The notes beneath the pieces are model-generated. The model did no database searches and was not told the origin of the DNA. It was given only the letters and a program-made list of their open reading frames with translations. From a virus (Duplodnaviria > Heunggongvirae > Uroviricota > Caudoviricetes), in IMG/VR virus record IMGVR_UViG_2864804954_000001, positions 46,193 to 110,192 of that record: 64,000 bases of DNA; one strand, 5' to 3'. How positions within the stretch are numbered: the first letter of the stretch is position 1; the number at the start of each line of letters is the position of its first letter. The position numbers were made by a program, and so were the translations under genes. Of the stretch, positions 14,343 through 30,113 are shown piece by piece.

Positions 14343-14642
14343 GCTGAACGCGTGCCGCATCTTGCCCTGTGCCGATGTTTGGCGATCTGTCGTTGGAAGT
14401 ATAAGGACAAGGTATCCACCACCCCATCCTGGAAATATAAGGAGGTCGTCGGAGGTCGGAGATTGAGGAAGGCTATGCACACGAAGGTTCGCGAAATTCC
14501 TAAGACTTCGCTTGTATATTATTTGATCAATTGATTCAGGTCTTGCTTAGTGTGTCGCGTCGCGTCGCGTGTTGCATCATCACTACATAGAAAAAAGCAT
14601 AGTGCTTTATACACTATGCTCTATATTGCGTTGTAATGCGTT

Positions 14643-15287
14643 TTAAGCTGCTGCTACTGCGTCGTCGTTGATGTTTAGCATGTTTAAGAAAATCTCACTG
14701 TGAGCGCTATCTTTGAAGCTTATAGCGTCGTCTTTTTTACCTTTTTCAACATGACACACATCGAGAAGCATTAACATCATGCGCGTGCTGCTGCTTTGCG
14801 TTTCAGCGGTTGACGGTGCAGTATTTTTATAGACTTTGATTTGTTTCAATTCGTCTAGTTTGAAGCTGTCTGTATTTTCGTTGACAATGTTAGCAGACAA
14901 GCAGCGCTCACACTCAAAGACAGTCAATGACTTATTAACTAGCAAATTGCGAACAATTGAGAACGTGTAACCGTCTAGTTTACGCGCGTTATTTTGCGCT
15001 ACTGCTGTCAATAGTTGACGAATTTTAGTGATCACTTTTACAGCAACGAATTTTTCGCTGTCTTTGTCGTTGATCGCAAAGTTTACTAAATCGTCGAGTT
15101 TTAAACCTTTTTTGATGCACAAGTCGATCATAGCTAAACCGCTTGCAGACGCGAAAGATTTAAGGTCGGTGCGCAATGTTTTGCATTCTTTACCTGTTAT
15201 ACCTTCGTGTAACGGTAAACGTATTTCGATCGCTTCAACGATAGCTTTTTGTAGTTTAGTTGCTTTTGCAGACGCTTTAGTAGTCAT
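14643..15287 (-). CDS. hypothetical early protein (214 aa)
   Basis: ORF preceded by promoter copy A (TTGCAT-16-TATTAT) and the conserved leader. Confidence 0.5.
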   Translation of the reverse strand: MTTKASAKATKLQKAIVEAIEIRLPLHEGITGKECKTLRTDLKSFASASGLAMIDLCIKKGLKLDDLVNFAINDKDSEKFVAVKVITKIRQLLTAVAQNNARKLDGYTFSIVRNLLVNKSLTVFECERCLSANIVNENTDSFKLDELKQIKVYKNTAPSTAETQSSSTRMMLMLLDVCHVEKGKKDDAISFKDSAHSEIFLNMLNINDDAVAAA

Positions 15288-15348
15288 GATGTATATACCT
15301 TATGTAGTGAGTGTTTAACCGTTTATCGAACCGTGTTTTGTGTTCTTC

Positions 15349-15390
15349 GTTTCGATAAAGCTATAATAGCAGATTTAAGTATTGATGCAA
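15349..15390 (-). promoter_or_regulatory. sigma70-like early promoter plus conserved leader (copy A)
   Basis: Minus strand reads TTGCAT-16 nt-TATTAT-AGCTTTATCGAAACGAAGAACAC. About 90 percent identical to copy B over roughly 100 bp. Confidence 0.55.
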
Positions 15391-15427
15391 CACTTATTTT
15401 ATAAATATTGCATCAAGTGTTCATTAT

Positions 15428-15817
15428 TTAAGCGGTTGCTTTAAGTGCTTTTTTCGCTGCTTTTTCGCGCTGCTTTTCTTCGTGCGCTGCAATCTCAGCA
15501 AAGAACAAGCGCAATAAGTCATGTTGTGAAATATTTAAGATTTTTTCAGCGTCGAACAAATTAAAACGGTACTCATCGAGCGAAGATACAACTCTCGCGA
15601 CAAAGGTTAAAAAATCACCTTCTGTTAATTCAGTCTTGACAAGCGCAAGCGTTGCAATTGTCTTTTTCAAGTTTTTAGCAATTACCTTTTTGCTTGTTTC
15701 GTCTTCAATTGAAAATTGAACCTCAAAGTGCTGTTTTGACGTGTACACGTCAAAAGTTATTTGAACAAGCGGTGTAGCGGTTGAAGCGATAAATTTCTGT
15801 TTTGCTAAAATTTGCAT
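15428..15817 (-). CDS. hypothetical early protein (129 aa)
   Basis: ORF preceded by promoter copy B. Confidence 0.5.
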   Translation of the reverse strand: MQILAKQKFIASTATPLVQITFDVYTSKQHFEVQFSIEDETSKKVIAKNLKKTIATLALVKTELTEGDFLTFVARVVSSLDEYRFNLFDAEKILNISQHDLLRLFFAEIAAHEEKQREKAAKKALKATA

Positions 15818-15870
15818 TTTTAAAACCTTATGTAGTGAGTTTGACCATCGAACCGCGTTTTGTGCATCTC

Positions 15871-15912
15871 GTTTCGATAAAGCTATAATAACAGATTTAA
15901 GTATTGATGCAA
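15871..15912 (-). promoter_or_regulatory. sigma70-like early promoter plus conserved leader (copy B)
   Basis: TTGCAT-16-TATTAT-AGCTTTATCGAAACGAGATGCAC on minus strand. Confidence 0.55.
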
Positions 15913-16184
15913 CATATAATTTTAATTATTTTTTGTTTGATCACTGATTATTCAATCAATTTTATTTGCAAAAATAACTATTGATTCAATATTTAAACTA
16001 TGTTACTCGCACGCACGCGCTCATTTATATGCAGTCAAAACTATACCGCTTGAATGCTGGAAATTTCGGGGTGGGAAATGGCTGTTTTTTGATGATTTTT
16101 TGACCGCACCTGACCGACGCACCAAGGACGCACCAAGGCGATTTCCAGGTCGGAGGTGGAGACTAATGGCGATGGCTCGTTAGG

Positions 16185-16290
16185 GGCAGGCGCTTTAGGA
16201 AAAATGTCAGCCCGCCCAAGGACTTTGAAGGCGCATGTTGGTGCAGGCGCTTTTAGGAAATAGTCAGCTCGCCCAAGGGTTTCTCGTTAG
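16185..16290. repeat. tandem 46-bp direct repeats
   Basis: GCAGGCGCTTTAGGAAAAATGTCAGCCCGCCCAAGGACTTTGAAGG and GCAGGCGCTTTTAGGAAATAGTCAGCTCGCCCAAGGGTTTCTCG. A third diverged copy lies at 18535-18580. Confidence 0.5.
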
Positions 16291-16425
16291 CTCAGGCTAT
16301 TGGTTTGATGGCTGCTATTGGTGCACGCTGGTCATGACAGGCAACACACTTCCCTGCTGCGCCCTTGGTTGATGCGTGTATTAAGAGTGACCGCCCAATG
16401 CGAGCGGTCAGTTGTCGTTTAGTCT

Positions 16426-16902
16426 TTAGTGCAAGTCGCTGTATGCTGCACAAGATTTGTCAGCGTAAACAATTACACATTTGTCCAAGTGAATTTCGAT
16501 TTCTTCTGTTGACTTCACATAATGAAGCACACGAGCTTGATCTTCTTCATCTCCTTCAGTGTAACAGTCTGCGCTTGCGTCGTTAATTTCTGCGACCGCT
16601 GTGTACATCGCTTGGTGCTGTTCATGCGTTAGGTGGTCAAGGCAAATTGTACTGAAATACTCGTAGTAATCATTTACACGCAAACCGTCATGGTAAATGA
16701 AGTCTGGTGTCATTGGCGCTGCACCTTTAGGCTGCTGTTCAGGGTGTGAAGCATAACGAAATACTTGATTGTCATTTTCTGCACCGCTACCGCACAAAGG
16801 AGATACGTTGCGCTTGCATAGAGAGATCACACAAGGACGCGAGAAACCCATTACCATTGCGTCGTATCCATGTTCTGCTATGCGGTATGCTGTAACTTTC
16901 AT
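16426..16902 (-). CDS. hypothetical early protein (158 aa)
   Basis: ORF preceded by CATAATAACTCTATCGAAACGAACAAC leader at 16927-16950. Confidence 0.45.
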   Translation of the reverse strand: MKVTAYRIAEHGYDAMVMGFSRPCVISLCKRNVSPLCGSGAENDNQVFRYASHPEQQPKGAAPMTPDFIYHDGLRVNDYYEYFSTICLDHLTHEQHQAMYTAVAEINDASADCYTEGDEEDQARVLHYVKSTEEIEIHLDKCVIVYADKSCAAYSDLH

Positions 16903-16926
16903 TTCGTTTAACTCTATGTGTTGTTC

Positions 16927-16960
16927 GTTTCGATAGAGTTATTATGAGTGTCGTTCTAAG
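16927..16960 (-). promoter_or_regulatory. early promoter/leader, TCGAAAC family
   Basis: Minus: CTCATAATAACTCTATCGAAACGAACAACAC, no SD before the ATG. Confidence 0.45.
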
Positions 16961-16994
16961 GCTTACTACACTAGGCGTAGGGTAGATGCAGATA

Positions 16995-17135
16995 GGTGAC
17001 AATGTTGCCTGCGAAAGCCTGATCTAGCCTTGGATCGGCCTGTGCCTGCCTTTGCCTGTGGCCGCCTGAATGTGCCTCGGAAAGTTTTGGGTGTGCCTGA
17101 GCCTGTAAATGCCTGCATGAGCCTGTAAATGCCGT
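16995..17135. repeat. GCCTG pentamer cluster and 15-bp direct repeat
   Basis: At least 10 GCCTG/GTGCCTG units. GAGCCTGTAAATGCC occurs twice (17099, 17119). Confidence 0.45.
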
Positions 17136-17160
17136 GGTATCTCTATAGAGAAGAACCGCA

Positions 17161-17439
17161 CTAGGCGGCCTTTCTTAACTTACGATCTGCAAAGTCCATT
17201 AGCTTTTTAGTGAATTGCAGATACTTGGCGCGGTCTTTCCCAATCAGCTCGTATGGGAAAGGCGCACCGCTCTCAATGAGTATGATCTTCTTTCTATGCT
17301 CGCATATATCAAGCACAGGCATAAAGTGACCGATCTCTCTTGTACGTGCGCCAAGATCGAGTACAGCAACTTTGAACGAATGACCTTTTAGGCGCGCTGC
17401 TATTAGCACTTGACCGTTTTTAATTAAGCGTAATTTCAT
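17161..17439 (-). CDS. hypothetical early protein (92 aa)
   Basis: True start MKLRL. Upstream ORF extension translates the leader as SIETN. Confidence 0.45.
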   Translation of the reverse strand: MKLRLIKNGQVLIAARLKGHSFKVAVLDLGARTREIGHFMPVLDICEHRKKIILIESGAPFPYELIGKDRAKYLQFTKKLMDFADRKLRKAA

Positions 17440-17462
17440 TTCTTTGTACCGTGTGTCGTTTG

Positions 17463-17520
17463 TTTCGATAGATGTATTGTGACGCACGATGTATGGACAT
17501 GAAGTGTTTGGAGTGCGAAT
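17463..17520 (-). promoter_or_regulatory. early promoter/leader, TCGAAAC family, with upstream GATGTATGGAC box
   Basis: Minus: ACTCCAAACACTTCATGTCCATACATCG-TGCGTCACAATACATCTATCGAAACAAACGAC. Confidence 0.45.
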
Positions 17521-17550
17521 TTGTGGCCTTGCCTGTGAGTGCCTTGGTTT

Positions 17551-17592
17551 TATTATATAAAGCCGCTCTATAGATAGAGCGGCTTTGTTTCT
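17551..17592 (-). terminator. intrinsic terminator (12-bp perfect stem)
   Basis: AAAGCCGCTCTA-taga-TAGAGCGGCTTT flanked by A/T runs. Confidence 0.6.
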
Positions 17593-17933
17593 TAACTGTG
17601 CAACTTGAGCAGTGAGTTATCTAATACCATTTTGGACACAAACTCGCGAGCGTCTGTCGCTTCGTAGAAGTTATGCGATCGGACGAGCTTCAATTCGTCG
17701 TATGTTAGTGCGTCAACGCATGAAATGTTGCTAATGTCACAATGACCGCTTGTATACTCGTTGATCTCGAAAATCAGCGCTTCATCACTGCTATAGACCG
17801 CAATGTCATAAATCAGATTGGACGCTTGCAGTACGATAAAATTACCATCTTCGACGTTGCAGTCTTGTTTTATGCTTTCAAGTTCTGCGATTTCGTCAGC
17901 GGTAGCGATTTGATTATTGATAAGTGTTTGCAT
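17592..17933 (-). CDS. hypothetical early protein (113 aa)
   Basis: True start MQTLINN. ORF-track N-terminal extension is leader read-through (LIETTN). Confidence 0.45.
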   Translation of the reverse strand: MQTLINNQIATADEIAELESIKQDCNVEDGNFIVLQASNLIYDIAVYSSDEALIFEINEYTSGHCDISNISCVDALTYDELKLVRSHNFYEATDAREFVSKMVLDNSLLKLHS

Positions 17934-17955
17934 AGCTCTCTTTAGAGTGTTTGTT

Positions 17956-18012
17956 GTTTCGATAAGTGAATTATGAAGCGCGATGTATGGACTTGAAGTG
18001 TTTGGAGTACGC
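17956..18012 (-). promoter_or_regulatory. early promoter/leader, TCGAAAC family with upstream GATGTATGGAC box
   Basis: Minus: ...GTCCATACATCGCGCTTCATAATTCACTTATCGAAACAACAAACAC. Confidence 0.45.
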
Positions 18013-18081
18013 TTGTTCAGCATTGCCCAAGGACGGTAGAGAGAATGGAAAGAGCCACCGCAATGATGGCTCTGTGTGGAG

Positions 18082-18312
18082 TTAGCAGGTGTGCCATTCA
18101 CCTACTATGTCCAGATCATGCACGCCAACCGCCATGCACTGCCCTGTCGGCTTCCAGATGTTGAAAGCTCTTGGGTGAAGTTTGCCGCGAAACATTTTCC
18201 ATACCAACCCTTTAACAGAGAAAGTGCCACGACCCTTCGCCTCATGCACAGTCACTCGACTGCCATTGCGTGTACGGTATTCGCCAGGTTTTGTTATTTC
18301 AAAATTTTCCAT
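18082..18312 (-). CDS. hypothetical early protein (76 aa)
   Basis: ORF with leader TATCATGACTCTATCGAAACGCACAACGAGAG directly upstream. Confidence 0.4.
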   Translation of the reverse strand: MENFEITKPGEYRTRNGSRVTVHEAKGRGTFSVKGLVWKMFRGKLHPRAFNIWKPTGQCMAVGVHDLDIVGEWHTC

Positions 18313-18319
18313 TGTTAAA

Positions 18320-19815
18320 CTCTCGTTGTGCGTTTCGATAGAGTCATGATAGACCGCAGACGGTGGGTTTCAACGCTTGGCTCAGGCAGTTTTGCATTTG
18401 TCCTCTCTCTACCGTAATAACAGCCCAAGGACGCGCCTTTGTCGCCAGTCTTCACCAAGGGGACGCCGTGGACGATCGGTGGAAATAAAAAAGCCAGCTC
18501 CGAAATTAATCTGGAACTGGCTCTTGGTTGTGTGTAGGTGCTTTAGGAAATATTCAGCTTGGAAAAAGGATTTTGAAGTTTAAAATTTTTCCTTAATTTT
18601 AATCTTTAAATTTAATCCTCCTTTCCATCGTGAAAACCTTGGAGAAGGAAACTGCCCCCCCTTACCCCCCGTGGCTTTAAATGGCTCATTTTTGGGAGAG
18701 TAAGGAGGAAGGCAATTTCTCTTGTCCTTGGCTAACACGAAGAAAGGAGGATTACTCTTTCCACATTTGCTAAACCTCGACCCAAGCAAACCGCACCCCT
18801 ATCGAAAGCAATACGTCCTGACGATTACCCAGTCAGAAACTAATCTAGGGCGAATGATAAGTCAGTGGTGACTATTTGGCAATATAAGTTTTGGGATTGG
18901 CGGTGGATTTTTAACAAGGCAATTCATAGGCTCGCATTCGCTCGCTCTCCTACAGTCCTCTCTACAGTATTCTTACCTACATACATCTCTCCTATGTTCC
19001 TCTATGTATTCCTCTCTACCGTACTACCTACATACATACTCTCTACGTTATTACTCCATGTGTGAATCCTCTCTACCGTAGTTATTGTCTTCCTTCTCTC
19101 TACCGTGGTTGTTCTCTTTATTGTTGGTTTTCTGCTTTGTGTTTAATAAGGTCTTTTTGATAGGTGTATGGAAAATTTTGGAGCTGTTCTGATTTGGGTG
19201 AATTAAGATTCTTTTTTGTGTAGGCGTATGGGTAACTTGGGAGACTTGGGGATTTGTCTCTCTACCGTAATATATAAATATATTCTTCCTGTTATTTATA
19301 TTTATTGCGGTGTGAACTTGGGAGTTTATGGAAATATGGGAATATGGGAATATTCCTTACCATATTTCTAGCCTGCGAGCCTGACGTTTTTATTTGCCTG
19401 AGTGCCTGCGGTTTTATTGTGCCTAGTATTTATTAATTCTCTCTCATTTGCGTTCTAAGCGTGTTTAGTTTGTTTGTGCTGTCGTTTATCGTTTTCTTTC
19501 TTAAAGTGTCTCTATGAGCGAATTAGAGCGGTTTTATCGCATGTTTTATATCTTTGTTTGACGGTTAAGTCGAATACTCTCCTGCGTTAAGTTAGATGAA
19601 AGGATTTATTAAATGATTGATGCAAGTATTAAATGTTTTCTTTAGGATTATCAATGGCTTATTATGTGTTTTGCCTTGGGAATATTTATGTACAAAAAAT
19701 AAGCGATCTAGGTGGTCTAAATCGCTTATTACATCATTGTGATGGAGTCTCTATTATCTCAGTGTGATCTTGGAAATCAGTCTGTTTAAACTTGTGCTTT
19801 GTCTTGTTCATACAA
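18320..19815. repeat. 1.5 kb non-coding region with iteron-like repeats
   Basis: No credible ORF. Contains CTCTCTACCGT(A/G) at least five times, TACCTACATACAT twice, the 46-bp GCAGGCGCTTTAGGAAA-type repeat, GCCTG clusters, TTGGGAG/TATGGGAATATGGGAAT tandem units and an AT-rich core. Confidence 0.5.
18856..18875. promoter_or_regulatory. palindromic element PAL (inverted-flank variant)
   Basis: GATAAGTCAGTGGTGACTAT in the iteron region. Confidence 0.4.
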
Positions 19816-20178
19816 TTAGCTCCAACCGTATGCTGTTTGTCCATTGCTAAAGTGCGATGTCATCGCGTCCAAGTTGACATACATATCTTGCGAAACTTCG
19901 TAAAGGTCTCCTGACGGTTCAAAGTCATTAATGTCGCTTAGGATTACACCGATTGCGTCGATTAAGTTGCAGTCCAATGCACTTAGGTCATGCGATGAAT
20001 GGACGCAAAAGTTTGAATCATCACACACAGAAGGAGAGATCGGACGCGAGAATGGAGTAACTTCGTTGTTGTAGATATGTAGGACGATGTCACCGCTTAA
20101 ACCAACCTTTTCAGATTCGGTTGACTTTAGGAGTGCGAAGCCCGTCGAACCGATGCGCGATATTTGCAAAGTTTTCAT
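19816..20178 (-). CDS. hypothetical early protein (120 aa)
   Basis: Leader GCATAATACATTTATCGAAACAAACAACGG, no SD. Confidence 0.45.
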   Translation of the reverse strand: MKTLQISRIGSTGFALLKSTESEKVGLSGDIVLHIYNNEVTPFSRPISPSVCDDSNFCVHSSHDLSALDCNLIDAIGVILSDINDFEPSGDLYEVSQDMYVNLDAMTSHFSNGQTAYGWS

Positions 20179-20198
20179 AAGGTTTTATAACCGTTGTT

Positions 20199-20225
20199 TG
20201 TTTCGATAAATGTATTATGCGTTAC
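20199..20225 (-). promoter_or_regulatory. early promoter/leader, TCGAAAC family
   Basis: CATAATAC-ATTTATCGAAACAAACAAC on minus strand, 21 nt before the ATG. Confidence 0.45.
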
Positions 20226-20298
20226 GGTAGAAGGATATGAAGCGTCTGGAGTACGGTAGTTTGACTGAGCCCTAACTTCACCAAGGAGAGTGACTAAC

Positions 20299-20327
20299 AA
20301 AAAGAAACCGCCTATTACAGCGGTTCT
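20299..20327 (-). terminator. intrinsic terminator
   Basis: Minus: AACCGC-tgtaatag-GCGGTT then TTCTTTTT. Confidence 0.5.
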
Positions 20328-20335
20328 TGGTGATC

Positions 20336-20704
20336 TTAGGTGTTTTCACCGTTCAGGACGCGTGTCACATTGAGGTCGCAATCAATTTTGACGGCTTCAA
20401 GCAGGGAGATGTCGTAGGACAGGTGGCTATAACAATTTGGAGCAACAACGGCATCAGAAAGCATGATGCAATGCTCAAGTAGATCATTGGCGGTAAAACC
20501 GTGAATAGGGCGATCTAGGACAAGCACAAGGTCATAATCAGCATGGTGCGCTTGGGTGACAGGGTTCAGCGTTTCAGGTTTACCGAAACCGTAGGTGAAG
20601 TGCGTCAGGAAGTGCGCATTGATTACTTCTTCACCTTTGGTGATTTTGAATTTGAAGATGTCGCTGTCTATGTGGAAGTCATCGGCGCGTTCTATGATTA
20701 ACAT
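20336..20704 (-). CDS. hypothetical early protein (about 122 aa)
   Basis: True start MLIIERADD. Upstream part of the ORF-track entry translates the leader (SIETNNEQNE). Start coordinate uncertain by 1-2 nt. Confidence 0.45.
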   Translation of the reverse strand: MLIIERADDFHIDSDIFKFKITKGEEVINAHFLTHFTYGFGKPETLNPVTQAHHADYDLVLVLDRPIHGFTANDLLEHCIMLSDAVVAPNCYSHLSYDISLLEAVKIDCDLNVTRVLNGENT

Positions 20705-20721
20705 TTCGTTTTGCTCGTTGT

Positions 20722-20750
20722 TTGTTTCGATAGAGTTATGATAGACCGCT
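20722..20750 (-). promoter_or_regulatory. early promoter/leader, TCGAAAC family
   Basis: Minus: GCGGTCTATCATAACTCTATCGAAACAAACAACGAGC. Same architecture as the 18332 copy. Confidence 0.45.
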
Positions 20751-20786
20751 AATGATGGAACACTAGCGGTTTTGAAGGACAGATGA

Positions 20787-21155
20787 TTAAGCGTCCGCTT
20801 CCTCAATCAATTTCAATTCCATCTTCATAAAGCCATCATCTTCCACTGTGACAATGGTGACGTGATTTTTGGTGCACGTTTGCGAGTGAATGCCTAGAAG
20901 CATGTTATGCACCGACGATTTGAAGGCGTTATACAGGCGAATGCCCATTTCAGAATCTTGGTCGCAGGCGCGCATTACGGTTTCAAAGTCCGCAAACTCG
21001 CTGTGAATGTCGAAGTTGCGTCCTTCTTCGTCCAATAGAGCGATACAGGAGAAGTGAAACTCCACCGATTCGTCACCAAGAATACGAGCGTCGAACTCTA
21101 CTCCTTCAGTTGCGCCAGTGTGACCGTAGTGCGCGCCAACATTCATAACTTTCAT
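20787..21155 (-). CDS. hypothetical early protein (122 aa)
   Basis: True start MKVMNVG. ISKQTT in the ORF track is the translated leader. Confidence 0.45.
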   Translation of the reverse strand: MKVMNVGAHYGHTGATEGVEFDARILGDESVEFHFSCIALLDEEGRNFDIHSEFADFETVMRACDQDSEMGIRLYNAFKSSVHNMLLGIHSQTCTKNHVTIVTVEDDGFMKMELKLIEEADA

Positions 21156-21174
21156 TTTTAAAAATCTCGTTGTT

Positions 21175-21200
21175 TGTTTCGATATGTGTATCTTGACCGC
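21175..21200 (-). promoter_or_regulatory. early leader, TCGAAAC family
   Basis: Minus: GATACACATATCGAAACAAACAACGAG, 20 nt before the ATG. Confidence 0.4.
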
Positions 21201-21235
21201 TTCACTATGGAAATGAAGCGGTTTTGATGGGCAGA

Positions 21236-21766
21236 TCAATAGGCGGCATATACTTTGTCATTGATCACGTAATAGCTTTCTTGGAGCGTGTCGCGACCGT
21301 AGGCTTCGTAATCGAAGTAATGCTGGATTTCGTCTGGAATTTCCAAGTTGCCTAACTCTTGGATGAGGTAGTATCCAAAGTCCTCATTGCCTTTAAAGTC
21401 CGTGCGAAAGTGATCGTCGTGCCATTTGCGCACATCGTCCCAATCTGAATAGCGACCTTTGACGATGGCTGCATACTGCTCGACAAGCTCCATTTCGCTG
21501 CTGTCGCAGTCTTCGATCATGGCGATGATTTTACTTAGACTGTCAAAAGCCCTGACTTCAATCTCAACGTCGGAAATGGAATCAACAAGGGCCCAAAATT
21601 CAAACTCCACATTGCGTGTTATTTCCTTGAGATCGTCCATGTCATCAAAGTTGATATTGAGACCGAATTGGTGCGTGAAGGAAAACGCCTCTATTTGATA
21701 GCGTTTGCTGCTGTCTGAGCAAAGGTTGGCGAACTGCTCTCTTGATATTTCAGTTGCAAAAGTCAT
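21236..21766 (-). CDS. hypothetical early protein (176 aa)
   Basis: True start MTFATEI. FIETNN is the translated leader. Confidence 0.45.
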   Translation of the reverse strand: MTFATEISREQFANLCSDSSKRYQIEAFSFTHQFGLNINFDDMDDLKEITRNVEFEFWALVDSISDVEIEVRAFDSLSKIIAMIEDCDSSEMELVEQYAAIVKGRYSDWDDVRKWHDDHFRTDFKGNEDFGYYLIQELGNLEIPDEIQHYFDYEAYGRDTLQESYYVINDKVYAAY

Positions 21767-21786
21767 TTTGTCTTTACCGTTGTTCG

Positions 21787-21834
21787 TTTCGATAAAGCAA
21801 TAATAAACCGCTAGTAGAGGACTACTAGCGGTTC
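21787..21834 (-). promoter_or_regulatory. terminator hairpin fused to next early promoter
   Basis: Minus: ACCGCTAGTAG-tcct-CTACTAGCGGT then TTTATTATT, whose TATTAT serves as the -10 for TGCTTTATCGAAACGAACAACGG. Confidence 0.55.
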
Positions 21835-21848
21835 TGTAGGGCGGTTCA

Positions 21849-22085
21849 TCACTTACCCTTCGTTGCGACCAACATAGCAATGGAAGTTACTGGATAACCG
21901 CCTATCGGTACGCCATACAAGCCTGCTTTCTTGCTGCGATTGTTCAACTCAGCGCGTAGGAGCGTGTTGTCACGACATAGGTTGTGCGCGGTGTTTTGTG
22001 CATCCAAGATCGCACGCTCATTGGAGCGAATCAGACGGAGTATCTCCTGCTCTGACAAAGTTTTAGCCTGAATAGCTACGTTCAT
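21849..22085 (-). CDS. hypothetical protein (78 aa)
   Basis: Start chosen at MNVAIQ to give an ATGA overlap with the upstream ORF. Confidence 0.35.
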   Translation of the reverse strand: MNVAIQAKTLSEQEILRLIRSNERAILDAQNTAHNLCRDNTLLRAELNNRSKKAGLYGVPIGGYPVTSIAMLVATKGK

Positions 22086-22720: not shown

Positions 22721-22968
22721 TTACTTGCAATGAATGGAGCAGCAGCGGCAGCAATGGCATCGCCAATCGGTAAATCAGCCATTTGTTTTAACTCGCTGAG
22801 GAAGTTTGCCATGTCTTCGCCTTGCATCAAGATGTCTTTAAACACTTGGTCACGATCAACGATGCAGACGTTGTTTTTCGCCTTAGAGAAACGCACGCCA
22901 ACATTAGGGCGAGCGGCTGTCTCAATAAGAGAAGGGGCTATTTGGTGCAAATCGTGTGAAATTTTCAT
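22711..22968 (-). CDS. hypothetical protein (85 aa)
   Basis: First gene after a sigma70-like promoter. Confidence 0.4.
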   Translation of the reverse strand: MKISHDLHQIAPSLIETAARPNVGVRFSKAKNNVCIVDRDQVFKDILMQGEDMANFLSELKQMADLPIGDAIAAAAAPFIASKWS

Positions 22969-22993
22969 GTCTAAAACCTTTTTAGCTGTACGT

Positions 22994-23041
22994 CGTTTCG
23001 TTCGACAAGCTAATAATATTCAGACGTGATAGGGTTGACAA
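22994..23041 (-). promoter_or_regulatory. sigma70-like promoter with TCGAACGAAAC leader
   Basis: Minus: TTGTCA-17 nt-TATTAT-TAGCTTGTCGAACGAAACGACG. The palindromic element at 23041-23060 abuts the -35. Confidence 0.55.
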
Positions 23042-23060
23042 TAGTCACCGCTGACTTATC
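23041..23060. promoter_or_regulatory. palindromic element PAL abutting -35
   Basis: ATAGTCACCGCTGACTTATC immediately upstream of TTGTCA -35. Confidence 0.45.
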
Positions 23061-23681: not shown

Positions 23682-24671
23682 TTATGCTGCGTCTTTCTTA
23701 GAAAGCTCAGGGAAATACTGGTCGCGTAGTCGCGCCAAGATGGTCGATTCTTCATTTGGCACTAAGCGACCGCCTTCTTCTTTTGCAATCTTGAGCAAAG
23801 GAAGCATTTGCATCATTTGACCTGCTTGGGCGCGAGCTGTACCGATCGAGTAAGGCTTCGCAAGGAGGTCTTTCACTAGGTTGCTGTCGCGGCCACCTGA
23901 GATATAACCGTCAGTAAGGAGCAGTTTGAATGTGCGGTACATGACTTCATTCCAACGACCGTTCTGTTTGAACATCGTAAACAGGATCACTACCTTTTCA
24001 GCCACCTTCTTCTGCACCGTTTCACCGTTTGTTGTCAACGTAGGCTGTGCGTTGAGTAAGCGCAGGAACTTTTGCTGCTTCTCTTTCAGTTCTTCTTCTG
24101 GAAGATCGACGTCACCGAACTCAAGGACGATCTCGCTTGTGTCACCGCCAAGTCGGTCAAGCAGCACAGCAGAACGCTTGGAGTTTTGATACGTCGTGCG
24201 GTACGTTGTTGGTGCTTTCTCTTTCTTCTGTTTTTCAGGCTTTTCTTCTGCTTTCGGTTCTTCAACCGTTGGTGCAACTTCTTCGGTCGCAAGTGTCAAA
24301 GCGGACGCATCAAGCTCTGCTTCATCAAACATTGCGTTTAGGATTTCGTCGTCGCTTGGCTCAGTTTCGGCTGTAGCTGGCTTTTCTTCTGCGTCAAGCA
24401 GCAAGTCAAGGTCAAGTTCAGGCTCAGGTTCAGGCGTCGCTTCTTTCTTCTCAGCTTTAACAGGCTTTTCTTTTGTCTTCTTAGGTTTAGCTTCAACGAC
24501 AGGCGCTGCTTCTGCTTGTTCTACTTCATCGAGCAGCAAGCTAAGGTCGATTTCATCGGAAGCAACCGCAACAGCTTCAACGGCAGGCTCAAGAACAACG
24601 CCGTCTATTTCAGCAAAAAGATCGTCTAGGTTGATTTCGTCATTTTGAGCGATAGTGTTTTGAGTATTCAT
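23682..24671 (-). CDS. acidic low-complexity protein (329 aa)
   Basis: True start MNTQNT after the TCGAAACGAGATACAC leader. Glu/Pro/Lys-rich repeats. Confidence 0.45.
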   Translation of the reverse strand: MNTQNTIAQNDEINLDDLFAEIDGVVLEPAVEAVAVASDEIDLSLLLDEVEQAEAAPVVEAKPKKTKEKPVKAEKKEATPEPEPELDLDLLLDAEEKPATAETEPSDDEILNAMFDEAELDASALTLATEEVAPTVEEPKAEEKPEKQKKEKAPTTYRTTYQNSKRSAVLLDRLGGDTSEIVLEFGDVDLPEEELKEKQQKFLRLLNAQPTLTTNGETVQKKVAEKVVILFTMFKQNGRWNEVMYRTFKLLLTDGYISGGRDSNLVKDLLAKPYSIGTARAQAGQMMQMLPLLKIAKEEGGRLVPNEESTILARLRDQYFPELSKKDAA

Positions 24672-24712
24672 ATTTTGCACCTTATGCGTTGTGAGATGAT
24701 TTTGTGTATCTC

Positions 24713-24770
24713 GTTTCGATAAGTGCATTATGAGCGACGATGTATGGATTAGAAGTGCTTTTGATGGATA
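24713..24770 (-). promoter_or_regulatory. early promoter/leader, TCGAAAC family with GATGTATGGA box
   Basis: Minus: CATACATCGTCGCTCATAATGCACTTATCGAAACGAGATACAC. Confidence 0.45.
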
Positions 24771-24815
24771 GATGAAGTTATTATTTCTTTTATTTTCAAC
24801 AAATTAAGCCAACAC

Positions 24816-25806: not shown

Positions 25807-25850
25807 AGAGAGTGGGTGAGAAGTAACTTGCTAGGCTACTTCTCAGGCGG

Positions 25851-26099: not shown

Positions 26100-26127
26100 G
26101 TGCAACTTCCACCATGCCTTCAACTTA

Positions 26128-26646
26128 TCAATCACTCCAACTGCTCCCTGAATCAGAACTGCCCCAACCGCTATCAGAAGAACTCCAACCACTGTCAGAA
26201 CTCAATGATGACGAGCCTAGACTTGAACTGCCTAGCGAACTAAAGCTGTCATCGGAAGTCTGTGCCGGAACCGACGAGGAACGGTAGAAGTCCTCTTTCG
26301 GTTCGCTTGTCACATCTACTGGAGCAGGCTCGAGTTTTGGCGTTTCTGCTTGTTTAGGCTCGTCGCGATCTCCGAAGTTTTCAGCTGCTTCCAATAGATC
26401 ATTCAAAGCCATCGCTGCAAGCACGCCATCAGAAAAGCCTAACCCGCTCGATTGAGTAGGCGCTTCGCCTTGAACTTTGTAGGATTCAAGTGGCATTGTG
26501 TGCTGACGGAAGTTTGGCATTCTGCCAAACCCCTGGCCATATTGCGCACCAACCATGCGACTTACTTGGTGATGCTTACTCACGCAAGCGTCACGATCTT
26601 TCTTTGTCCAGTGTCGCTTAAAGCAATATTCGCATTTAAACAGCAT
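26128..26646 (-). CDS. zinc-finger protein with Ser/Gly/Trp-rich repeat tail (172 aa)
   Basis: CEYCFKRHWTKKDRDACVSKHH zinc-binding-like N-terminus. C-terminal SSLGSSSLGSSSLSSDSGWSSSDSGWGSSDSGSSWSD. TAATG overlap with the upstream gene. Confidence 0.45.
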   Translation of the reverse strand: MLFKCEYCFKRHWTKKDRDACVSKHHQVSRMVGAQYGQGFGRMPNFRQHTMPLESYKVQGEAPTQSSGLGFSDGVLAAMALNDLLEAAENFGDRDEPKQAETPKLEPAPVDVTSEPKEDFYRSSSVPAQTSDDSFSSLGSSSLGSSSLSSDSGWSSSDSGWGSSDSGSSWSD

Positions 26647-26885
26647 TATTCGCGCTCCAAAAGATGAACCTGACAAAGCATGAACTGATTGATGCTTGGC
26701 TTGTCTACGCGAATATCCCAAACTTCACTGTTGATGCCTGTACCGTGACCACCGACGCATTTAGCGTCAGTGATTGTTAAAGTTTTGGCGTCTTCAAATT
26801 CCTGCTCAGAAGTGAGGTGCATTGATTCATAACCTTTAGGCGAAAGTTTGACTTTCATACCTGCATACGGTTGGCGAGTTAGCAT
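26646..26885 (-). CDS. hypothetical protein (79 aa)
   Basis: ORF in an overlapping operon. Confidence 0.4.
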   Translation of the reverse strand: MLTRQPYAGMKVKLSPKGYESMHLTSEQEFEDAKTLTITDAKCVGGHGTGINSEVWDIRVDKPSINQFMLCQVHLLERE

Positions 26886-27487
26886 GTTGCCTCCTGATAC
26901 TGATCGAGCAGATCCTCCGCGTATTCGCTTTCGCCATAGAAAGCCTCTACAGCTTCACAGTAAGTACCTGCGCGATCTTCTTCCTCTGCTTTGATGACGC
27001 TCAAGTATTTGTCTCCACCTTCAAGCGGCTTCATCCAAAGGTAGCTGTGTGCACCAAAGTTCCCTTCAGCTTCTTCAAGGAAGATATGCTTGACGTTGCA
27101 CTGCAGGCGGTTAGCGATCTGCTTTAATAGCTTTTCTCCCGCAGGGCCCCAAGCAGTGCTGAATCGAACCTCAAACATGCCTGAAAGCTCACAGCAATAA
27201 TCTTCCTTGTGACTGGCAAAATCAGATTCATGGGCGTTGTGTGTCGTTCCCCAATTTGTCTCCAACCACTTGCGCTGCATAACTTCAGGCATCACTGGCA
27301 TACGCAAGATGCGATCAAAATCAACACGGCATTCAATAGGCTCTGCAAGGAAGTGATGAGGACCTAAAAAATGCACTAGACGCTTCTTGCGGGTAAACTT
27401 CCGCATAAAAGCCTTTTTGTGCGCAAGAGGAATAATGATTGAGTTTTGGCACCAGTTAGGCATCTTCAAGCTCCTTTTTACAATCAA
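26879..27487 (-). CDS. hypothetical protein (202 aa)
   Basis: ORF, Cys/His-containing. Confidence 0.45.
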   Translation of the reverse strand: MIVKRSLKMPNWCQNSIIIPLAHKKAFMRKFTRKKRLVHFLGPHHFLAEPIECRVDFDRILRMPVMPEVMQRKWLETNWGTTHNAHESDFASHKEDYCCELSGMFEVRFSTAWGPAGEKLLKQIANRLQCNVKHIFLEEAEGNFGAHSYLWMKPLEGGDKYLSVIKAEEEDRAGTYCEAVEAFYGESEYAEDLLDQYQEATC

Positions 27488-27650
27488 TTACCGCCTGCTT
27501 TAAAAGCTCAAGAGAGCAGGGCTCACAAAAGTCCACGCACATTTTTAAAAGCGACATTGCACTTTTGGCTGCAGGCGTTGACATCTTCATCATGTACTGT
27601 GCGACGTCTTTATTAATTCCTGCCGCCTGTTCAATTTGAGATTGATTCAT
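27456..27650 (-). CDS. hypothetical protein (64 aa)
   Basis: Small ORF overlapping its neighbours. Confidence 0.35.
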   Translation of the reverse strand: MNQSQIEQAAGINKDVAQYMMKMSTPAAKSAMSLLKMCVDFCEPCSLELLKQAVIDCKKELEDA

Positions 27651-27883
27651 TCGTCTTCTCCTGCAGTCTTGCTGTAAAACTCCAAAAGCGCACAGTGGTA
27701 CTTTGCTGCCGCCTGTTCATTGACAATGCAATACTCTGAATAAGCATCACACGCGGGTCCACCTTCGTATGAATTTTCCATGTCAACTTTGACGCCTAAA
27801 CTTTCAGGTGTAGGCGCGCCCTTTTCAAGCGCACGTTCGTCAAGTCGAAAGTAGGAAGCGTTTTGCTGAATGTTGATATTCAT
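27647..27883 (-). CDS. hypothetical protein (78 aa)
   Basis: Small ORF in ATGA overlap. Confidence 0.35.
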   Translation of the reverse strand: MNINIQQNASYFRLDERALEKGAPTPESLGVKVDMENSYEGGPACDAYSEYCIVNEQAAAKYHCALLEFYSKTAGEDE

Positions 27884-29214
27884 GCTAATTCCTCCTCATC
27901 TTCTTCGCAGGCGACGTCATAGTGGTACACCGCTTCGATTACTTCGCCTTTGTCGTTGGTGCGGTAATACAGTGGAGCAGAGCCGTCACCGTGCGCTGTG
28001 TGCGAGTTACAGCCATGCTCAAACGTGCCACCTTCTTCTTTTTCAGGATTGTTGGCATTGCGGTATGAATCGCCACCTGATGACAGTGCGCATAGCTCAA
28101 AGTAGGCTTTGCGGTCGTCGCGATCTGTGTCGCCACCGTACTCGTTCTGATACCAACCTTCATCAAAGAAGCCCGCCTGACCTGAATCGACACCCACATC
28201 GAATTTGTTGTTTTCAATCCATACACCCTGATCGAAGGTGGTAAACTCAGGCACAGATTCATGCTTGACGTGCAGGAAGTGTGTGCGCTGTGGTTTACCG
28301 CTGTCAAACAGCTGTTGCGTGTACTCCACCGATTTTTTGAGCGCCTGCACGCAGACTGGATTTGACATGGTGAAATATACTTGGTCATGCGCTTCGTTGG
28401 CCGTACCTTCTGGAACACGCATACGCATTAATGCCATTGTTAGATGATGCCCATCACTCGAACGAGCGCGGTCAAGAATATGCGAGTATTTTTCAACAAG
28501 GACGTAATTGACTAGCTTCTCTAGGCAGTTCTGCGCGTAATCTTCCTCTTTCCACCAACTTCTGTGAGTGTTCAGCGGGGCAAATTTAGGCACTAAGGCT
28601 TCAATGATTGGCATAACTTCGGACGGATACCCGATTGACTTCCACGAAACGTAAATAGAGCGTCCATTCGCCTTCTCATACGCCTTAATTGCGTCGTAAA
28701 TTTGGACGTACTTTGCGTATTCGCCGTATTCAGTCATTGGCTCAAGAATTTCTATGGCCATCTTTTTCACAGCGATTAATTCAAGCAACTCGCCTTCGTC
28801 GTAACGATCACGGAAGAAACCGATTCGCGCTTGGTACTGACCATTGGCAGCAGGCATAGAGCCTTTGCACCACGTATCGTTGCTGTAGCATGGGTCGGTA
28901 AAGCGGATCGCGCCCGACTTAACTGTGAACACACCAAGATCGCGAACAGAACGTGTTGGCGAAGCGGCATTGATGCTCACGTAAGGAATCAACGACATTA
29001 CTTCAGTTACAGTTTGAGTGGCATCATCAAAAACAATCCAACCGTTTGCGAAGATGCCCCATTCAAATTTTTCGTTGGCAAGGTCTTCACCAACTTCGGG
29101 TGGAACAACAGAGAACCCAGTCTCACCGCGAACATATTCGAGAAAGGCGGGTATCGTTTTGTCTTTTTCGTGGCTCTTGCGCAAATCAGCAAGAACGCTT
29201 ACAAACTTCTTCAT
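27880..29214 (-). CDS. large hypothetical protein (444 aa)
   Basis: True start MKKFVSV with RBS AGAGG. The upstream 67 codons of the ORF-track entry translate the promoter/leader (IIIDLSKQ = ATTATCATTGACTTATCGAAACAAG). Confidence 0.5.
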   Translation of the reverse strand: MKKFVSVLADLRKSHEKDKTIPAFLEYVRGETGFSVVPPEVGEDLANEKFEWGIFANGWIVFDDATQTVTEVMSLIPYVSINAASPTRSVRDLGVFTVKSGAIRFTDPCYSNDTWCKGSMPAANGQYQARIGFFRDRYDEGELLELIAVKKMAIEILEPMTEYGEYAKYVQIYDAIKAYEKANGRSIYVSWKSIGYPSEVMPIIEALVPKFAPLNTHRSWWKEEDYAQNCLEKLVNYVLVEKYSHILDRARSSDGHHLTMALMRMRVPEGTANEAHDQVYFTMSNPVCVQALKKSVEYTQQLFDSGKPQRTHFLHVKHESVPEFTTFDQGVWIENNKFDVGVDSGQAGFFDEGWYQNEYGGDTDRDDRKAYFELCALSSGGDSYRNANNPEKEEGGTFEHGCNSHTAHGDGSAPLYYRTNDKGEVIEAVYHYDVACEEDEEELA

Positions 29215-29243
29215 GGGTTTAACCTCTTTGGTCAGTGTGACTT

Positions 29244-29270
29244 GTTTCGATAAGTCAATGATAATGCGTA
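29244..29270 (-). promoter_or_regulatory. early promoter/leader, TCGAAAC flanked by TGACTTA/AAGTCAC half-sites
   Basis: Minus: CATTATCATTGACTTATCGAAACAAGTCACACTG. The leader motif sits inside a palindrome resembling the intergenic palindromic element. Confidence 0.45.
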
Positions 29271-29284
29271 AACTTTGGAAAGGT

Positions 29285-30007
29285 TTAGGCAGATTGAGCT
29301 TCTGCTTTAAGCGCCCTAACATCAGCAGCGGTAAGCGTGGTGACTGGTCTAAACGTGTAATGTGCGTTGTAGATACGGTCGTCACCGATTGGGTCTGAGA
29401 ATACGAAAGTGCCATCTGCTCGTTGCATCATGTTTGCGCCATGCAGATCGACAAATGCGCGGTCGTAATCCTGCATGAACTGCGCAAGTTCATCTAAGGC
29501 GTCGATGATGGTTGGGTTGTCGTGCTGATAGAACGCGTTGTCGCGTAGGTGGTGCGCGATGTCTTTTGCTCTTGAGCGATAGTCAGGAACTTGTGACCGC
29601 TTGTCACCTTCGCGCCAATCTTTTGCAATACGACGAGACAAGGTGGCATTGCGCGTACCTTGAGGAATTTTATGCAATCTCTCAATCTCATAAAGATAGA
29701 TTGGCACTTGCAGCTCGATAGGATTTGTCAGCTTCGTGCGTGTCACGTTTTTTGATGTCGTGAACGTGCCAACGCGACCGAAGTTGCGAATGACATTTGC
29801 GAAGTGATGGCTGTCAGGTCGGTAAAGCGCGTCTGTATGGAACAGATAGCTTGCTTCATCAATGCTTAATTTTAAGACTGTGTTTTCGTTGTCGGATTCA
29901 AAGACGCCTGAATACTGGCCGCTACCGATAAGTTTACGACCTGCGAGGGCAGGATGATTCTTTCTGATCTCTTTAACGAGAGGGTCAGTTAATGTGAAAA
30001 TTTTCAC
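29285..30007 (-). CDS. putative protein kinase-like protein (240 aa)
   Basis: Gly-rich loop LIGSGQYSGVF followed by a VLKL lysine. Later HGANMMQRADGTFVFSDPIGD resembles the catalytic/Mg-binding segment of kinase-fold enzymes. Confidence 0.4.
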   Translation of the reverse strand: MKIFTLTDPLVKEIRKNHPALAGRKLIGSGQYSGVFESDNENTVLKLSIDEASYLFHTDALYRPDSHHFANVIRNFGRVGTFTTSKNVTRTKLTNPIELQVPIYLYEIERLHKIPQGTRNATLSRRIAKDWREGDKRSQVPDYRSRAKDIAHHLRDNAFYQHDNPTIIDALDELAQFMQDYDRAFVDLHGANMMQRADGTFVFSDPIGDDRIYNAHYTFRPVTTLTAADVRALKAEAQSA

Positions 30008-30113
30008 GGTGTACCTTTATTTGCTTTCGTTTCAATTGTGCTATTAAACAATGCGAATTGTGGAAAGTGTTGATTTTGTTGATATTGCCGAGCAGGGCAT
30101 AAAACAACAGGCA

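Follow-up and report, generated by a model that had tools for sequence, protein, structure and literature searches.

The stretch of DNA analyzed here (64,000 nucleotides (nt), positions 46,193 to 110,192 of the IMG/VR virus record IMGVR_UViG_2864804954_000001; hereafter, the window) comes from a tailed phage of the Caudoviricetes. Its early region carries a series of repeated promoter-leader cassettes, together with a candidate small RNA (sRNA) gene that contains an inverted copy of the cassette leader. Nearly all the genes of the window lie on the minus strand. Followed in the sense of transcription, toward lower coordinates, the gene order starts with a module for replication and nucleotide metabolism (DnaE-type polymerase at 58326-61772, SbcCD, RNR and ThyX), after which come a block of small ORFans (30-14.6 kb of the window), a plus-strand helicase and the terminase, portal and capsid genes. 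The polymerase is ~42% identical to its counterparts in siphoviruses of ~110 kb, such as Rhizobium RHEph10 and Pseudomonas nickie. Since the nearest annotated relatives are phage-plasmids of Acinetobacter baumannii (105-114 kb), and closer, unannotated relatives are found in Acinetobacter assemblies and metagenomes, the host is very probably an Acinetobacter. Among the early proteins no mutual similarity is seen, and the only product with a recognizable function, in a Pfam scan of 30 early-region proteins, is the anti-restriction protein ArdA (21236-21766). Tandem gene duplication was therefore rejected as the source of the repeats.

The 16-mer TATCGAAACRAACAAC, allowing up to two mismatches, has nine matches where 0.13 would be expected, all of them minus-strand and located at 15342-21794. 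A search anchored on TCGAAAC retrieves 14 cassettes in 15.4 kb: 12 canonical copies, which precede the gene starts at 15287, 15817, 16902, 17439, 17933, 18312, 20178, 20704, 21155, 21766, 24671 and 29214, and two degenerate ones, before 22968 (TCGAAC-GAAAC) and 30007 (TTGAAAC). The layout consists of CC at -27/-26, a -10 hexamer of the form YAnnAT, 6 nt, A(+1)TCGAAAC, and an A/C-rich tract. The copies, and two variant promoters elsewhere in the window, are the following (SD, Shine-Dalgarno; 5'UTR, 5' untranslated region):

15285..15390, minus strand: cassette 1, long leader; TTGCAT, 16 nt, TGc-TATTAT at 15368-15363, A(+1), TCGAAAC at 15355-15349; 69-nt 5'UTR with AAGGT, ATG at 15287; near-identical to cassette 2.
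15815..15912, minus strand: cassette 2, a duplicate of cassette 1 before gene 15817; gene and cassette are absent from the relative L116.
16900..16962, minus strand: cassette 3; GCC box, CATAAT at 16946-16941, TCGAAAC at 16933-16927, 32-nt 5'UTR, ATG at 16902.
17437..17517, minus strand: cassette 4; upstream box ACTCCAAACACTTCATGTCCATACATCG, CACAAT, TCGAAAC at 17468-17462, ATG at 17439.
17931..18011, minus strand: cassette 5; upstream box ACTCCAAACACTTCATGTCCATACATCG, CATAAT, TCGAAAC at 17962-17956, ATG at 17933.
18310..18373, minus strand: cassette 6; TTGAAA, 16 nt, TATCAT, TCGAAACGCACAACG (15/15 complementary to the sRNA), ATG at 18312.
20176..20255, minus strand: cassette 7; TCC box, CATAAT, TCGAAAC at 20206-20200, ATG at 20178.
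20702..20775, minus strand: cassette 8; hairpin CCGCTA..TAGCGG over -38 to -14 with TCC in the loop, TATCAT, TCGAAAC at 20730-20724, ATG at 20704.
21153..21227, minus strand: cassette 9; hairpin CCGCTTCA..TGAAGCGG, CAAGAT, TCGAAAC at 21182-21176, ATG at 21155.
21764..21837, minus strand: cassette 10, before ardA (21236-21766); terminator-like hairpin at 21834-21805, TATTAT, TCGAAAC at 21792-21786.
22966..23058, minus strand: degenerate cassette; palindrome TAAGTCAGCGGTGACT, TTGTCA, 17 nt, TATTAT, TCGAAC-GAAACGAC, then AAAAAGGT.
24669..24768, minus strand: cassette 11, long leader; TCC box, CATAAT, TCGAAAC at 24719-24713, AAGGTG, ATG at 24671.
29212..29279, minus strand: cassette 12; TCC box, TATCAT, tight hairpin GACTT-aTCGAAAC-AAGTC, GAGGT, ATG at 29214.
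30005..30064, minus strand: degenerate cassette 13; TCC box, TTTAAT, TTGAAAC at 30035-30029, AAAGGT, GTG at 30007.
38740..38819, minus strand: variant promoter; palindrome AAGTCACCCGTGACTT, TATAAT, 6 nt, TCGAAAC at 38783-38777, AACTGAAAAGGA, ATG.
50127..50205, minus strand: variant promoter; degenerate palindrome, TATAAT, 4 nt, TCGAAACGCACAAAC (50169), ATG at 50129.

The arrangement around the start site is rigid. In all 13 tabulated copies the -10 hexamer (TATTAT in three, CATAAT in four, TATCAT in three, and CACAAT, CAAGAT or TTTAAT) stands at a fixed distance of 7 nt from TCGAAAC; its position 2 is always A and its positions 5-6 are always AT, and the A preceding TCGAAAC is the seventh nucleotide after the hexamer. 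With this spacing, a standard sigma70 start is predicted to fall on that conserved A, and the predicted RNA would begin with AUCGAAAC(G/A)AACAAC. Eleven of the 13 window copies have the CC element, as TCC or GCC, as do 13 of 13 in relatives; the cassettes of the A. baumannii lineage add a TGn extended -10. A usable -35 is found in just three or four copies (TTGCAT at 15287 and 15817, with a 16-nt spacer and TGn; TTGTCA at 22968, 17 nt; TTGAAA at 18312, 16 nt), and generic sigma70-like promoter matches in the region are not above chance (22, against 25.3 expected from shuffled sequence). Host sigma70 RNA polymerase would use the conserved -10; with CC at -27/-26 in place of a -35 in most copies, a second factor may be needed. 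Stem-loops cover -38 to -14 in cassettes 8-10, of which only the one at 21834-21805 has a T-run, and the other cassettes have no such hairpin. A single-subunit phage RNA polymerase acting on N4-type hairpin promoters was rejected, as no RNA polymerase match was found (PHROGs for the large open reading frames (ORFs), Pfam for the 30 early-region proteins); the variable bases between hexamer and motif also count against it.

These results support the original prediction that these early promoters form a class of their own, joined to a conserved block that is transcribed, and every one of the 14 gene starts that it listed carries a cassette, although its figure of about 20 early copies is an overcount. 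The sigma70-like -10 that it described stands, whereas a good -35 is rare. The additional upstream box noted at 17485, 17978, 24738 and 20225, which includes the CC element, is exact at genes 17439 and 17933 but has diverged at 24671 and 20178; the further copies placed at 38674 and in the 50129 region do exist, at 38783 and 50169, but as variants with TATAAT 6 or 4 nt from TCGAAAC. The IETNN found at several N-termini had rightly been called an artifact, being simply the translation of ATCGAAACGAACAAC. Mechanical ORF calls extend upstream through the conserved leaders, as in the TTG/GTG-extended ORFs 20336-20806, 20787-21239 and 21236-21880. We regard it as highly likely that the repeats are conserved promoter-leader cassettes similar to the PeSL cassettes of T4-type phages.

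The predicted 5'UTRs measure 27-69 nt, and those of eight short-leader genes 27-32 nt. In these eight, and in the degenerate copy at 30007 (21 nt), the distance to the ATG is 19-24 nt, as had been proposed for the whole class, while in the others this distance is 29-61 nt. The absence of an SD sequence, also proposed for all copies, likewise applies to a part of them. The eight short-leader genes have a marginal SD only, with a mean anti-SD duplex energy of -2.8 kcal/mol (other window genes, median -5.35; random positions, mean -1.8 kcal/mol), and none of the eight reaches -4.4, a value attained by 60% of the other genes. On the other hand, AAGGT or GAGGT is carried by the four canonical long-leader copies (15287, 15817, 24671 and 29214) and by the degenerate 22968 and 30007, and in the GC-rich relative L107 (GC 0.56) the same promoter and TC(G)AAAC start are joined to a strongly conserved SD leader, AACACAACGAAAGGTAA. 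Weak SDs are thus a trait of a subset, not of the cassette class, and a dedicated SD-independent or leaderless-like mode of initiation does not hold as its hallmark; start codons 27-69 nt from the predicted 5' end are not those of leaderless messages. The A/C-rich character of the leader was borne out, the predicted primary leaders being almost unstructured (minimum free energy 0 to -7.7 kcal/mol). C/A-rich (ACA) translation enhancers are documented (PMC3879156), and the behavior of these elements is a fit for such leaders, which in the eight genes would stand in for a real SD. UCGAAAC is not known to match the E. coli 16S sequence, and complementarity to 16S rRNA, like T-loop mimicry, was considered and dropped.

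An inverted copy of the leader, GCTCGAAACGCACAACGCACCAACCAAAAAGGT, lies on the plus strand at 30189-30221. It belongs to a candidate sRNA gene read from the minus strand, with the following parts:

30113..30256, minus strand: candidate anti-leader sRNA gene; -35 TTGACA at 30256-30251, 17 nt, -10 TATTTT at 30233-30228.
30221-30113, minus strand: predicted RNA of ~110 nt, predicted +1 at A 30221.
30221-30189, minus strand: seed, ACCUUUUUGGUUGGUGCGUUGUGCGUUUCGAGC.
30189-30163, minus strand: hairpin 1.
30140-30123, minus strand: terminator GGGCAGG-GAAA-CUUGCCC, then U6AUU to 30113.

In six lineages TTGACA, exactly 17 variable nt, TATTTT and 6 nt are kept. In L178, L179, L180 (A. baumannii), L181 and L182 (A. 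brisouii) the unit is found at the syntenic position, preceded by genes for an exonuclease and a small membrane protein. Hairpin 1 shows a compensatory U-A to C-G change across lineages, the terminators are built from three to four unrelated stems, each then followed by a U-run, and the z score of the fold is -2.4 in the window and -5.1 in the A. baumannii plasmid L091. A. baumannii lineage 1, L129 and L183 have a second seed type at the syntenic position; its segment is 93% identical between L125 and L129, with flanks at 60-88%, and it keeps the -35 and -10 around a diverged spacer. The sRNA is missing from A. baumannii lineage 2, where a single cassette is left. Because promoter, hairpin and terminator are conserved, we consider the sRNA at 30221-30113(-) likely to be real and expressed.

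No Rfam family matches the sRNA at gathering score, permissive scans giving only chance-level matches to unrelated families. A literature search for the motif and the sRNA sequence returned nothing relevant, and the window-type sRNA pattern has zero matches in IMG/VR. RNAalifold on MAFFT alignments of the sRNA was uninformative, as gap placement shifted the helices, and stems were read in each sequence instead. No small ORF follows the inverted leader on the plus strand in the window or in L091, and a 12-codon ORF found only in pACI-b25a was discarded as a conserved feature. This last plasmid is one of several non-phage Acinetobacter plasmids that carry a homologue of the window sRNA (pACI-b25a, at L174 1500-1622; pACI-df08; pXH901; NZ_CP018873.1), with the same seed (ACCUUUUCAGUUGGUGCGUUGUUUGUUUCGAGC), hairpin 1 and terminator. 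On pACI-b25a the homologue adjoins a gene for a 133-amino-acid (aa) hypothetical protein and a resolvase, and a scan of the full plasmid revealed no matching leader; the plasmid-borne sRNA might have its targets in trans, on phage-plasmids in the same cell or among host genes. Among the relatives, an A. baumannii lineage-1 plasmid has an Hfq gene (L124 1774-2313), and Phage_ProQ_C_like proteins are encoded by L182 (16168-16500, beside ardA) and L183 (4612-4977). The 30 early-region window proteins scanned include no RNA chaperone, the position of Hfq in relatives lying outside the window.

The G/U-rich 5' end of the sRNA is antisense to UCGAAACGCACAAC, in the early leader, and to the SD box CCAACCAAAAAGG of middle genes. 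In translation initiation region windows, the predicted duplexes average -25.3 kcal/mol for the early leaders (p=6e-4 vs other genes) and -34.5 kcal/mol for the middle-box leaders (p=2e-5), while other genes stand at -20.4 +/- 3.5 kcal/mol. Complementarity is perfect at the 18312 leader (15/15) and at the leader of a gene that probably starts at 33545 (17/17), and the 22968 leader gives the best predicted duplex among all starts tested (-40.8). The conserved block of the early leaders (+2 to +16) matches in extent their region of complementarity to the sRNA, UCGAAAC being invariant. The sRNA of A. baumannii lineage 1 is antisense to an entire early-type leader, including the purine run AAAGAGAG, and five of the six motif-bearing leaders of that genome rank in the top 9 of 102 gene starts as predicted sRNA targets.

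Several middle genes have a different leader, in which a hairpin with UCGAAAC in its loop precedes the conserved SD box CCAACCAAAAAGG:

32808..32866, minus strand: middle-type leader B; hairpin CGGTGGCAG/CTGTCACCG with loop tcUCGAAAC, CCAACCAAAAAGG at 32831-32819, ATG at 32810 of an 80-aa gene.
33543..33623, minus strand: middle-type leader A; palindrome and TATAAT, hairpin with GCUCGA loop, GCACCAACCAAAAAGGT (17/17 complementary to the sRNA 5' end).
46078..46125, minus strand: middle-type leader; hairpin ACGGTC/GACCGT, loop acUCGAAAC at 46115-46109, CCAACCAAAAAGG at 46102-46090, ATG at 46080.
56966..57088, minus strand: middle-type leader variant; palindrome, hairpins, TTGAAAC, AAACCAAAAAGG, ATG at 56968.
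58212..58260, minus strand: middle-type leader variant; hairpin GTAGC/GCTAC, loop AACGAAACAC, then CAATCAAAAAGG, ATG at 58214.

The gene called from 33590 likely starts at ATG 33545, after CCAACCAAAAAGGTttccatt. In four orthologues of gene 32810 the stem of leader B covaries, being kept through many compensatory changes around an invariant loop nnUCGAAAC, and the box covaries with the sRNA seed:

Leader-B stem, window: 5' CGGTGGCAG, 3' CTGTCACCG.
Leader-B stem, L178: 5' GGCGGTAG, 3' CTGCCGCC.
Leader-B stem, L179: 5' GGCGGTCAG, 3' CTGACCGCC.
Leader-B stem, L181: 5' GGGGTAGT, 3' ACTACCCC.

Seed and SD boxes change together, with three states seen at two orthologous targets:

Window: seed CCUUUUUGG, target box CCAAAAAGG.
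L178-L180: seed CCUUUUCAG, target box CUGAAAAGG.
L181: seed CCUUUUCGG, target box CCGAAAAGG.

TCGAAAC is also found in tight hairpin loops with no adjoining -10 (for example at 46115, 32848 and 41485, at L091 20974 and at L117 11524). A flanking stem of at least 5 bp accompanies 10 of 51 sense-strand copies, against a background of 7%, and none of the 11 antisense copies. Invariant UCGAAAC loops on covarying stems away from any -10 point to recognition of the single-stranded motif in RNA, rather than of a double-stranded DNA operator. One such hairpin, AAAATGACGCTATC-TCGAAACA-GATAGCGTTATTTT at 41464-41501 (minus strand), is terminator-like, with TCGAAAC in its loop, and lies directly upstream of ATG 41460; its role could be that of a terminator, that of an sRNA target or the two combined.

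The original prediction had suggested that the conserved leader might be the target of a phage-encoded trans-acting regulator, and the candidate for this role is now the antisense sRNA at 30221-30113(-), not a protein of the RegA/RegB type. That the sRNA pairs with the middle-type leaders is probable, with support from the covariation. For the early block TATCGAAAC(R)AACAAC, the idea that it is kept because it is a pairing site for the sRNA comes close to an even call. On balance, we lean toward the leader being a shared address through which an antisense RNA controls early and middle messages together.

A number of points weigh against this interpretation. The pairing with early leaders is imperfect, consisting of the 7-nt UCGAAAC plus ~6 nt with one or two mismatches, and only 18312 reaches 15/15; an internal helix predicted for cassettes 1 and 2 (UAUCGAA with UUCGAUA) would leave the motif there unavailable. 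The part of the seed that faces the early leaders shows no clean covariation across lineages, and when own and cross pairings with early leaders are compared, the own sRNA is ahead by just 1.8 to 2.6 kcal/mol. The covariation of seed and box could also come from gene conversion, in which the inverted copy inside the sRNA gene could take part along with the other repeated leaders. Half of the L107 copies have a degenerate TCGAAAC start, and neither the available 21.5 kb nor a pattern scan of IMG/VR yielded an L107-type leader in antisense orientation. Both the cassette +1 and sRNA expression are predicted features, and the sRNA may repress its targets or activate them.

The strongest competing account, which we consider unlikely, is that the block serves efficiency alone, as an optimized initial transcribed sequence joined to an unstructured, C/A-rich, S1-dependent enhancer and kept uniform by cassette recombination, while the sRNA, if real, serves only the middle genes with the CCAACCAAAAAGG box. 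The strict 7-nt spacing between -10 and TCGAAAC would be expected of such an element, as would the sharing of the motif by promoters of three upstream designs (-35, TGn and CC box); the leaders are unstructured and their SDs weak, enhancers of the ACA and C/A-rich kind are documented (PMC3879156), cassette homogenization and indels are in evidence, and the sRNA pairs far better with middle-box than with early leaders, whose module lacks clean covariation. A pure promoter element does not, however, explain TCGAAAC in covarying hairpin loops with no promoter adjoining, nor is efficiency a reason for the early conserved block to coincide with the sRNA-complementary stretch, or for the lineage-1 sRNA to be antisense to a whole early-type leader, with AAAGAGAG, and to have early leaders as its top predicted targets.

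A protein that binds or cuts single-stranded UCGAAAC, be it a RegA-like repressor, a RegB-like endoribonuclease or a chaperone like the Hfq and ProQ-like proteins that relatives encode, would also suit a motif that is single-stranded at the predicted 5' end or in loops on covarying stems, and T4 RegA and RegB are a precedent (PMC3014915). We hold it to be improbable. RegB cuts GGAG and RegA binds A+U-rich sites that include the AUG (PMC3014915); no GGAG is present in any of the 12 canonical leaders, GGAG-type SDs sitting on non-cassette genes, and the conserved block is A/C-rich and located at +1 to +16, 10-50 nt upstream of the AUG, so that neither of the two analogies raised by the original prediction applies. 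The 30 early-region proteins scanned (the window has ~60 further ORFs) include no Pfam match to RegA/RegB or to RNA-binding or RNase families, a chaperone would work alongside the sRNA and not in its place, and the motif already has an explanation in an RNA that is perfectly complementary to it and has its own promoter and terminator. Less probable still is that TATCGAAAC(R)AACAAC at +1 to +17 is an asymmetric DNA operator for a master repressor of the phage-plasmid, which would block RNA polymerase during plasmid carriage. Phage P1 has dispersed C1 operators, and here too an asymmetric conserved block overlaps the start site of many dispersed promoters, in a phage-plasmid family whose members encode helix-turn-helix regulators. 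Against such an operator, the motif is strictly strand-specific and recurs, at a distance from any -10, in the loops of tight hairpins whose stems covary, its inverted copy has a promoter and terminator of its own and covaries with RNA-level partners, and the sequence past TCGAAAC varies among relatives while its composition is kept.

Under the antisense interpretation that we favor, the sRNA would block ribosome access by covering the C/A-rich enhancer or the SD, as is the case with GcvB. Since its promoter is a sigma70 consensus, it could keep leaky lytic messages silent while the element is carried as a plasmid, or serve as an early timer or shut-off. We tentatively propose a 'leader-addressed regulon', in which a single sRNA would hold or release entry into the lytic cycle through a portable leader placed on ~20 early and middle genes. 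As parts of this proposal, seed and leaders would co-evolve within each lineage, and the sRNA on unrelated Acinetobacter plasmids could provide RNA-based immunity or exclusion against these phages.

The cassettes contain a further element, ahead of the predicted +1. In about half of them, the 8-nt stretch that separates the -10 from TCGAAAC is complementary to a region made up of the start codon and the 20 nt of leader before it, and the partner sequences vary from copy to copy:

Gene 16902: TAACTCTA with TAGAGTTA in the translation start region.
Gene 18312: GACTCT with AGAGTT.
Gene 21766 (ardA): CTTTA with TAAAG in the translation start region.
Gene 24671: TGCACTT upstream of +1 with AGGTGCA at the SD.
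L091 8606: TCATTCA with TGAATGA.
L091 19377: TAGCTCTA with TAGAGCTA.

Over 19 non-redundant copies, the summed duplex energy with the own arm is -71.9 kcal/mol, compared with -47.9 +/- 6.5 for permuted partners (p=0.0002), and other 8-nt windows or shuffled arms score lower than this arm. Complementarity of the 6-8 nt before +1 is an observed feature of these copies, and we infer that it may have a masking function. As the 5' arm lies upstream of the predicted start, only read-through RNA could form the helix; read-through transcripts alone would have their translation start region masked, and the gene's own transcript would stay open.

The cassette architecture is also found in the A. baumannii plasmids L091 and L092, in L116 and L117 (a third lineage), in L178-L181 and in L107. 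The A. baumannii plasmid p107.0Kbp has seven copies, one of them before ardA. In L107, at least eight early promoters on the minus strand at 13300-20850 combine a GCC box, (C/T)ACAAT, gcagtcA and TC(G/A)(A/C)AAC, each joined to AACACAACGAAAGGTAA. The cassette principle is family-wide and the leader sequence is lineage-specific. Compared with L116, the window contains one extra unit, made of gene 15817 and the second, near-identical cassette copy; gene indels with a cassette copy on either side are the mark of T4-type PeSL cassettes (PMC2839356), and the cassettes would serve as recombination handles for the gain and loss of early genes, of which this is the one indel shown. In the window, cassette 12 heads an operon of ~10 genes, the internal ones with canonical SDs. 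Searches for further relatives gave no match by megablast of the early region against phages, by tblastn of g16902 against phages, or by a related-locus search of IMG/VR with g24671; an exact-motif scan of IMG/VR returned mostly lone chance matches, with L019, L047 and L060 the only true relatives.

Some additional features of the window deserve mention. The palindrome (A)AGTAAGTCA-N4-TGACT occurs at 17 sites, with 26 matches over both strands against 0.27 expected:

Sites 1-9: 1655-1672, 2891-2908, 5557-5574, 7543-7560, 7987-8002, 11839-11854, 18858-18873, 23043-23058, 33608-33623.
Sites 10-17: 37955-37970, 38802-38819, 41521-41538, 44070-44087, 45414-45429, 50188-50205, 50889-50906, 57073-57088.

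It usually stands just upstream of, or overlaps, TATAAT, TATACT or TTACTA before replication and structural genes, and probably marks a separate class of middle or late promoters or operators; a variant, GTCAGTAGTGAC, is present in the A. baumannii plasmids. An ORF-free gap of 1.5 kb (18313-19815) contains an iteron-like repeat, ACGGTAGAGAG (seven copies at 18033-19268; eight matches window-wide vs 0.6 expected), as well as TCCCATAT and CCCAAGT repeats. The gap probably serves as a plasmid-type origin or as a partition site, in keeping with a phage-plasmid lifestyle, and a comparable unannotated gap follows ardA in the A. baumannii plasmid. A second stretch of ~600 nt with no minus-strand ORF lies at 15818-16425, between genes 16902 and 15817, and positions 16260-15828 are kept at 81% identity in L116.

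If the proposed regulon is correct, unrelated early and anti-defense genes, ArdA among them, join the control of one sRNA by acquiring a portable cassette, which couples gene shuffling to regulation and would be a new way of organizing a phage regulon. The presence of the same type of sRNA on other Acinetobacter plasmids suggests RNA-based immunity between mobile elements, and the phage-plasmid family concerned (~105-114 kb) is common in clinical A. baumannii. A defined RNA of 110 nt, defined targets and natural compensatory variants make the idea readily testable. For annotation, ORF callers push several gene starts of the family upstream into the leader (...IETNN...; 33590 vs 33545).

The closest parallel to the cassettes themselves is the PeSL of T4-type phages (PMC2839356, PMC4122927), which are also short repeated regulatory cassettes before small, unrelated early ORFans, with a sigma70-type promoter, often a stem-loop over or beside it (here, in cassettes 8-10), and gene gain or loss bounded by two copies (here, gene 15817 relative to L116). 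PeSL belong to T4-type myoviruses, whereas the present cassettes are from a siphovirus relative of phage-plasmids. Instead of the sigma70-consensus -35 plus -10 that characterizes PeSL, most of them have no consensus -35 (three or four copies have a usable one) and keep CC at -27/-26; their conservation reaches 16 nt into the transcript, SDs are weak in eight genes, and the genome encodes an antisense partner of the leader. The masking arm recalls T4 genes e, soc, 49 and I-TevI (PMC3014915), in which the helix that sequesters the translation start has its 5' arm ahead of the gene's transcription start, so that read-through RNA is masked and the own transcript is not; this is the arrangement predicted here, although with early in place of late promoters, with stems of only 5-8 bp, and in about half of the copies. 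As with T4 RegB and RegA (PMC3014915), many early messages would be under coordinate post-transcriptional control through a short shared sequence near the translation start, but neither type of site is present in the leaders and the candidate regulator is an RNA.

The candidate sRNA has the traits of GcvB-type silencers (PMC3879156), namely a G/U-rich single-stranded seed, a trans-encoded gene, a Rho-independent terminator, and C/A-rich targets upstream of or across the SD of many mRNAs. It has no sequence or Rfam relationship to GcvB, does not match the covariance model of that family (RF00022), is encoded by a mobile element, and has as its targets the element's own genes, through a repeated leader cassette. 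By the sequence of its leaders the system falls outside the RegA/RegB systems, and it belongs neither to the GcvB family nor to the leaderless class. Small phage RNAs that pair with the ribosome-binding region of lytic-pathway messages are known in c4 of P1/P7 and sar of P22, P1 being itself a phage-plasmid. These act on one neighboring target (icd-ant), whereas the RNA described here matches ~20 dispersed leaders and has no known sequence similarity to c4 or sar. We found no earlier description of a mobile element that addresses ~20 of its own genes by one sRNA through a repeated leader. The principles that the system combines are, nevertheless, all known ones: PeSL-like cassettes, a promoter within an inhibitory helix, C/A-rich enhancers, a multi-target G/U-rich sRNA and antisense immunity RNAs.

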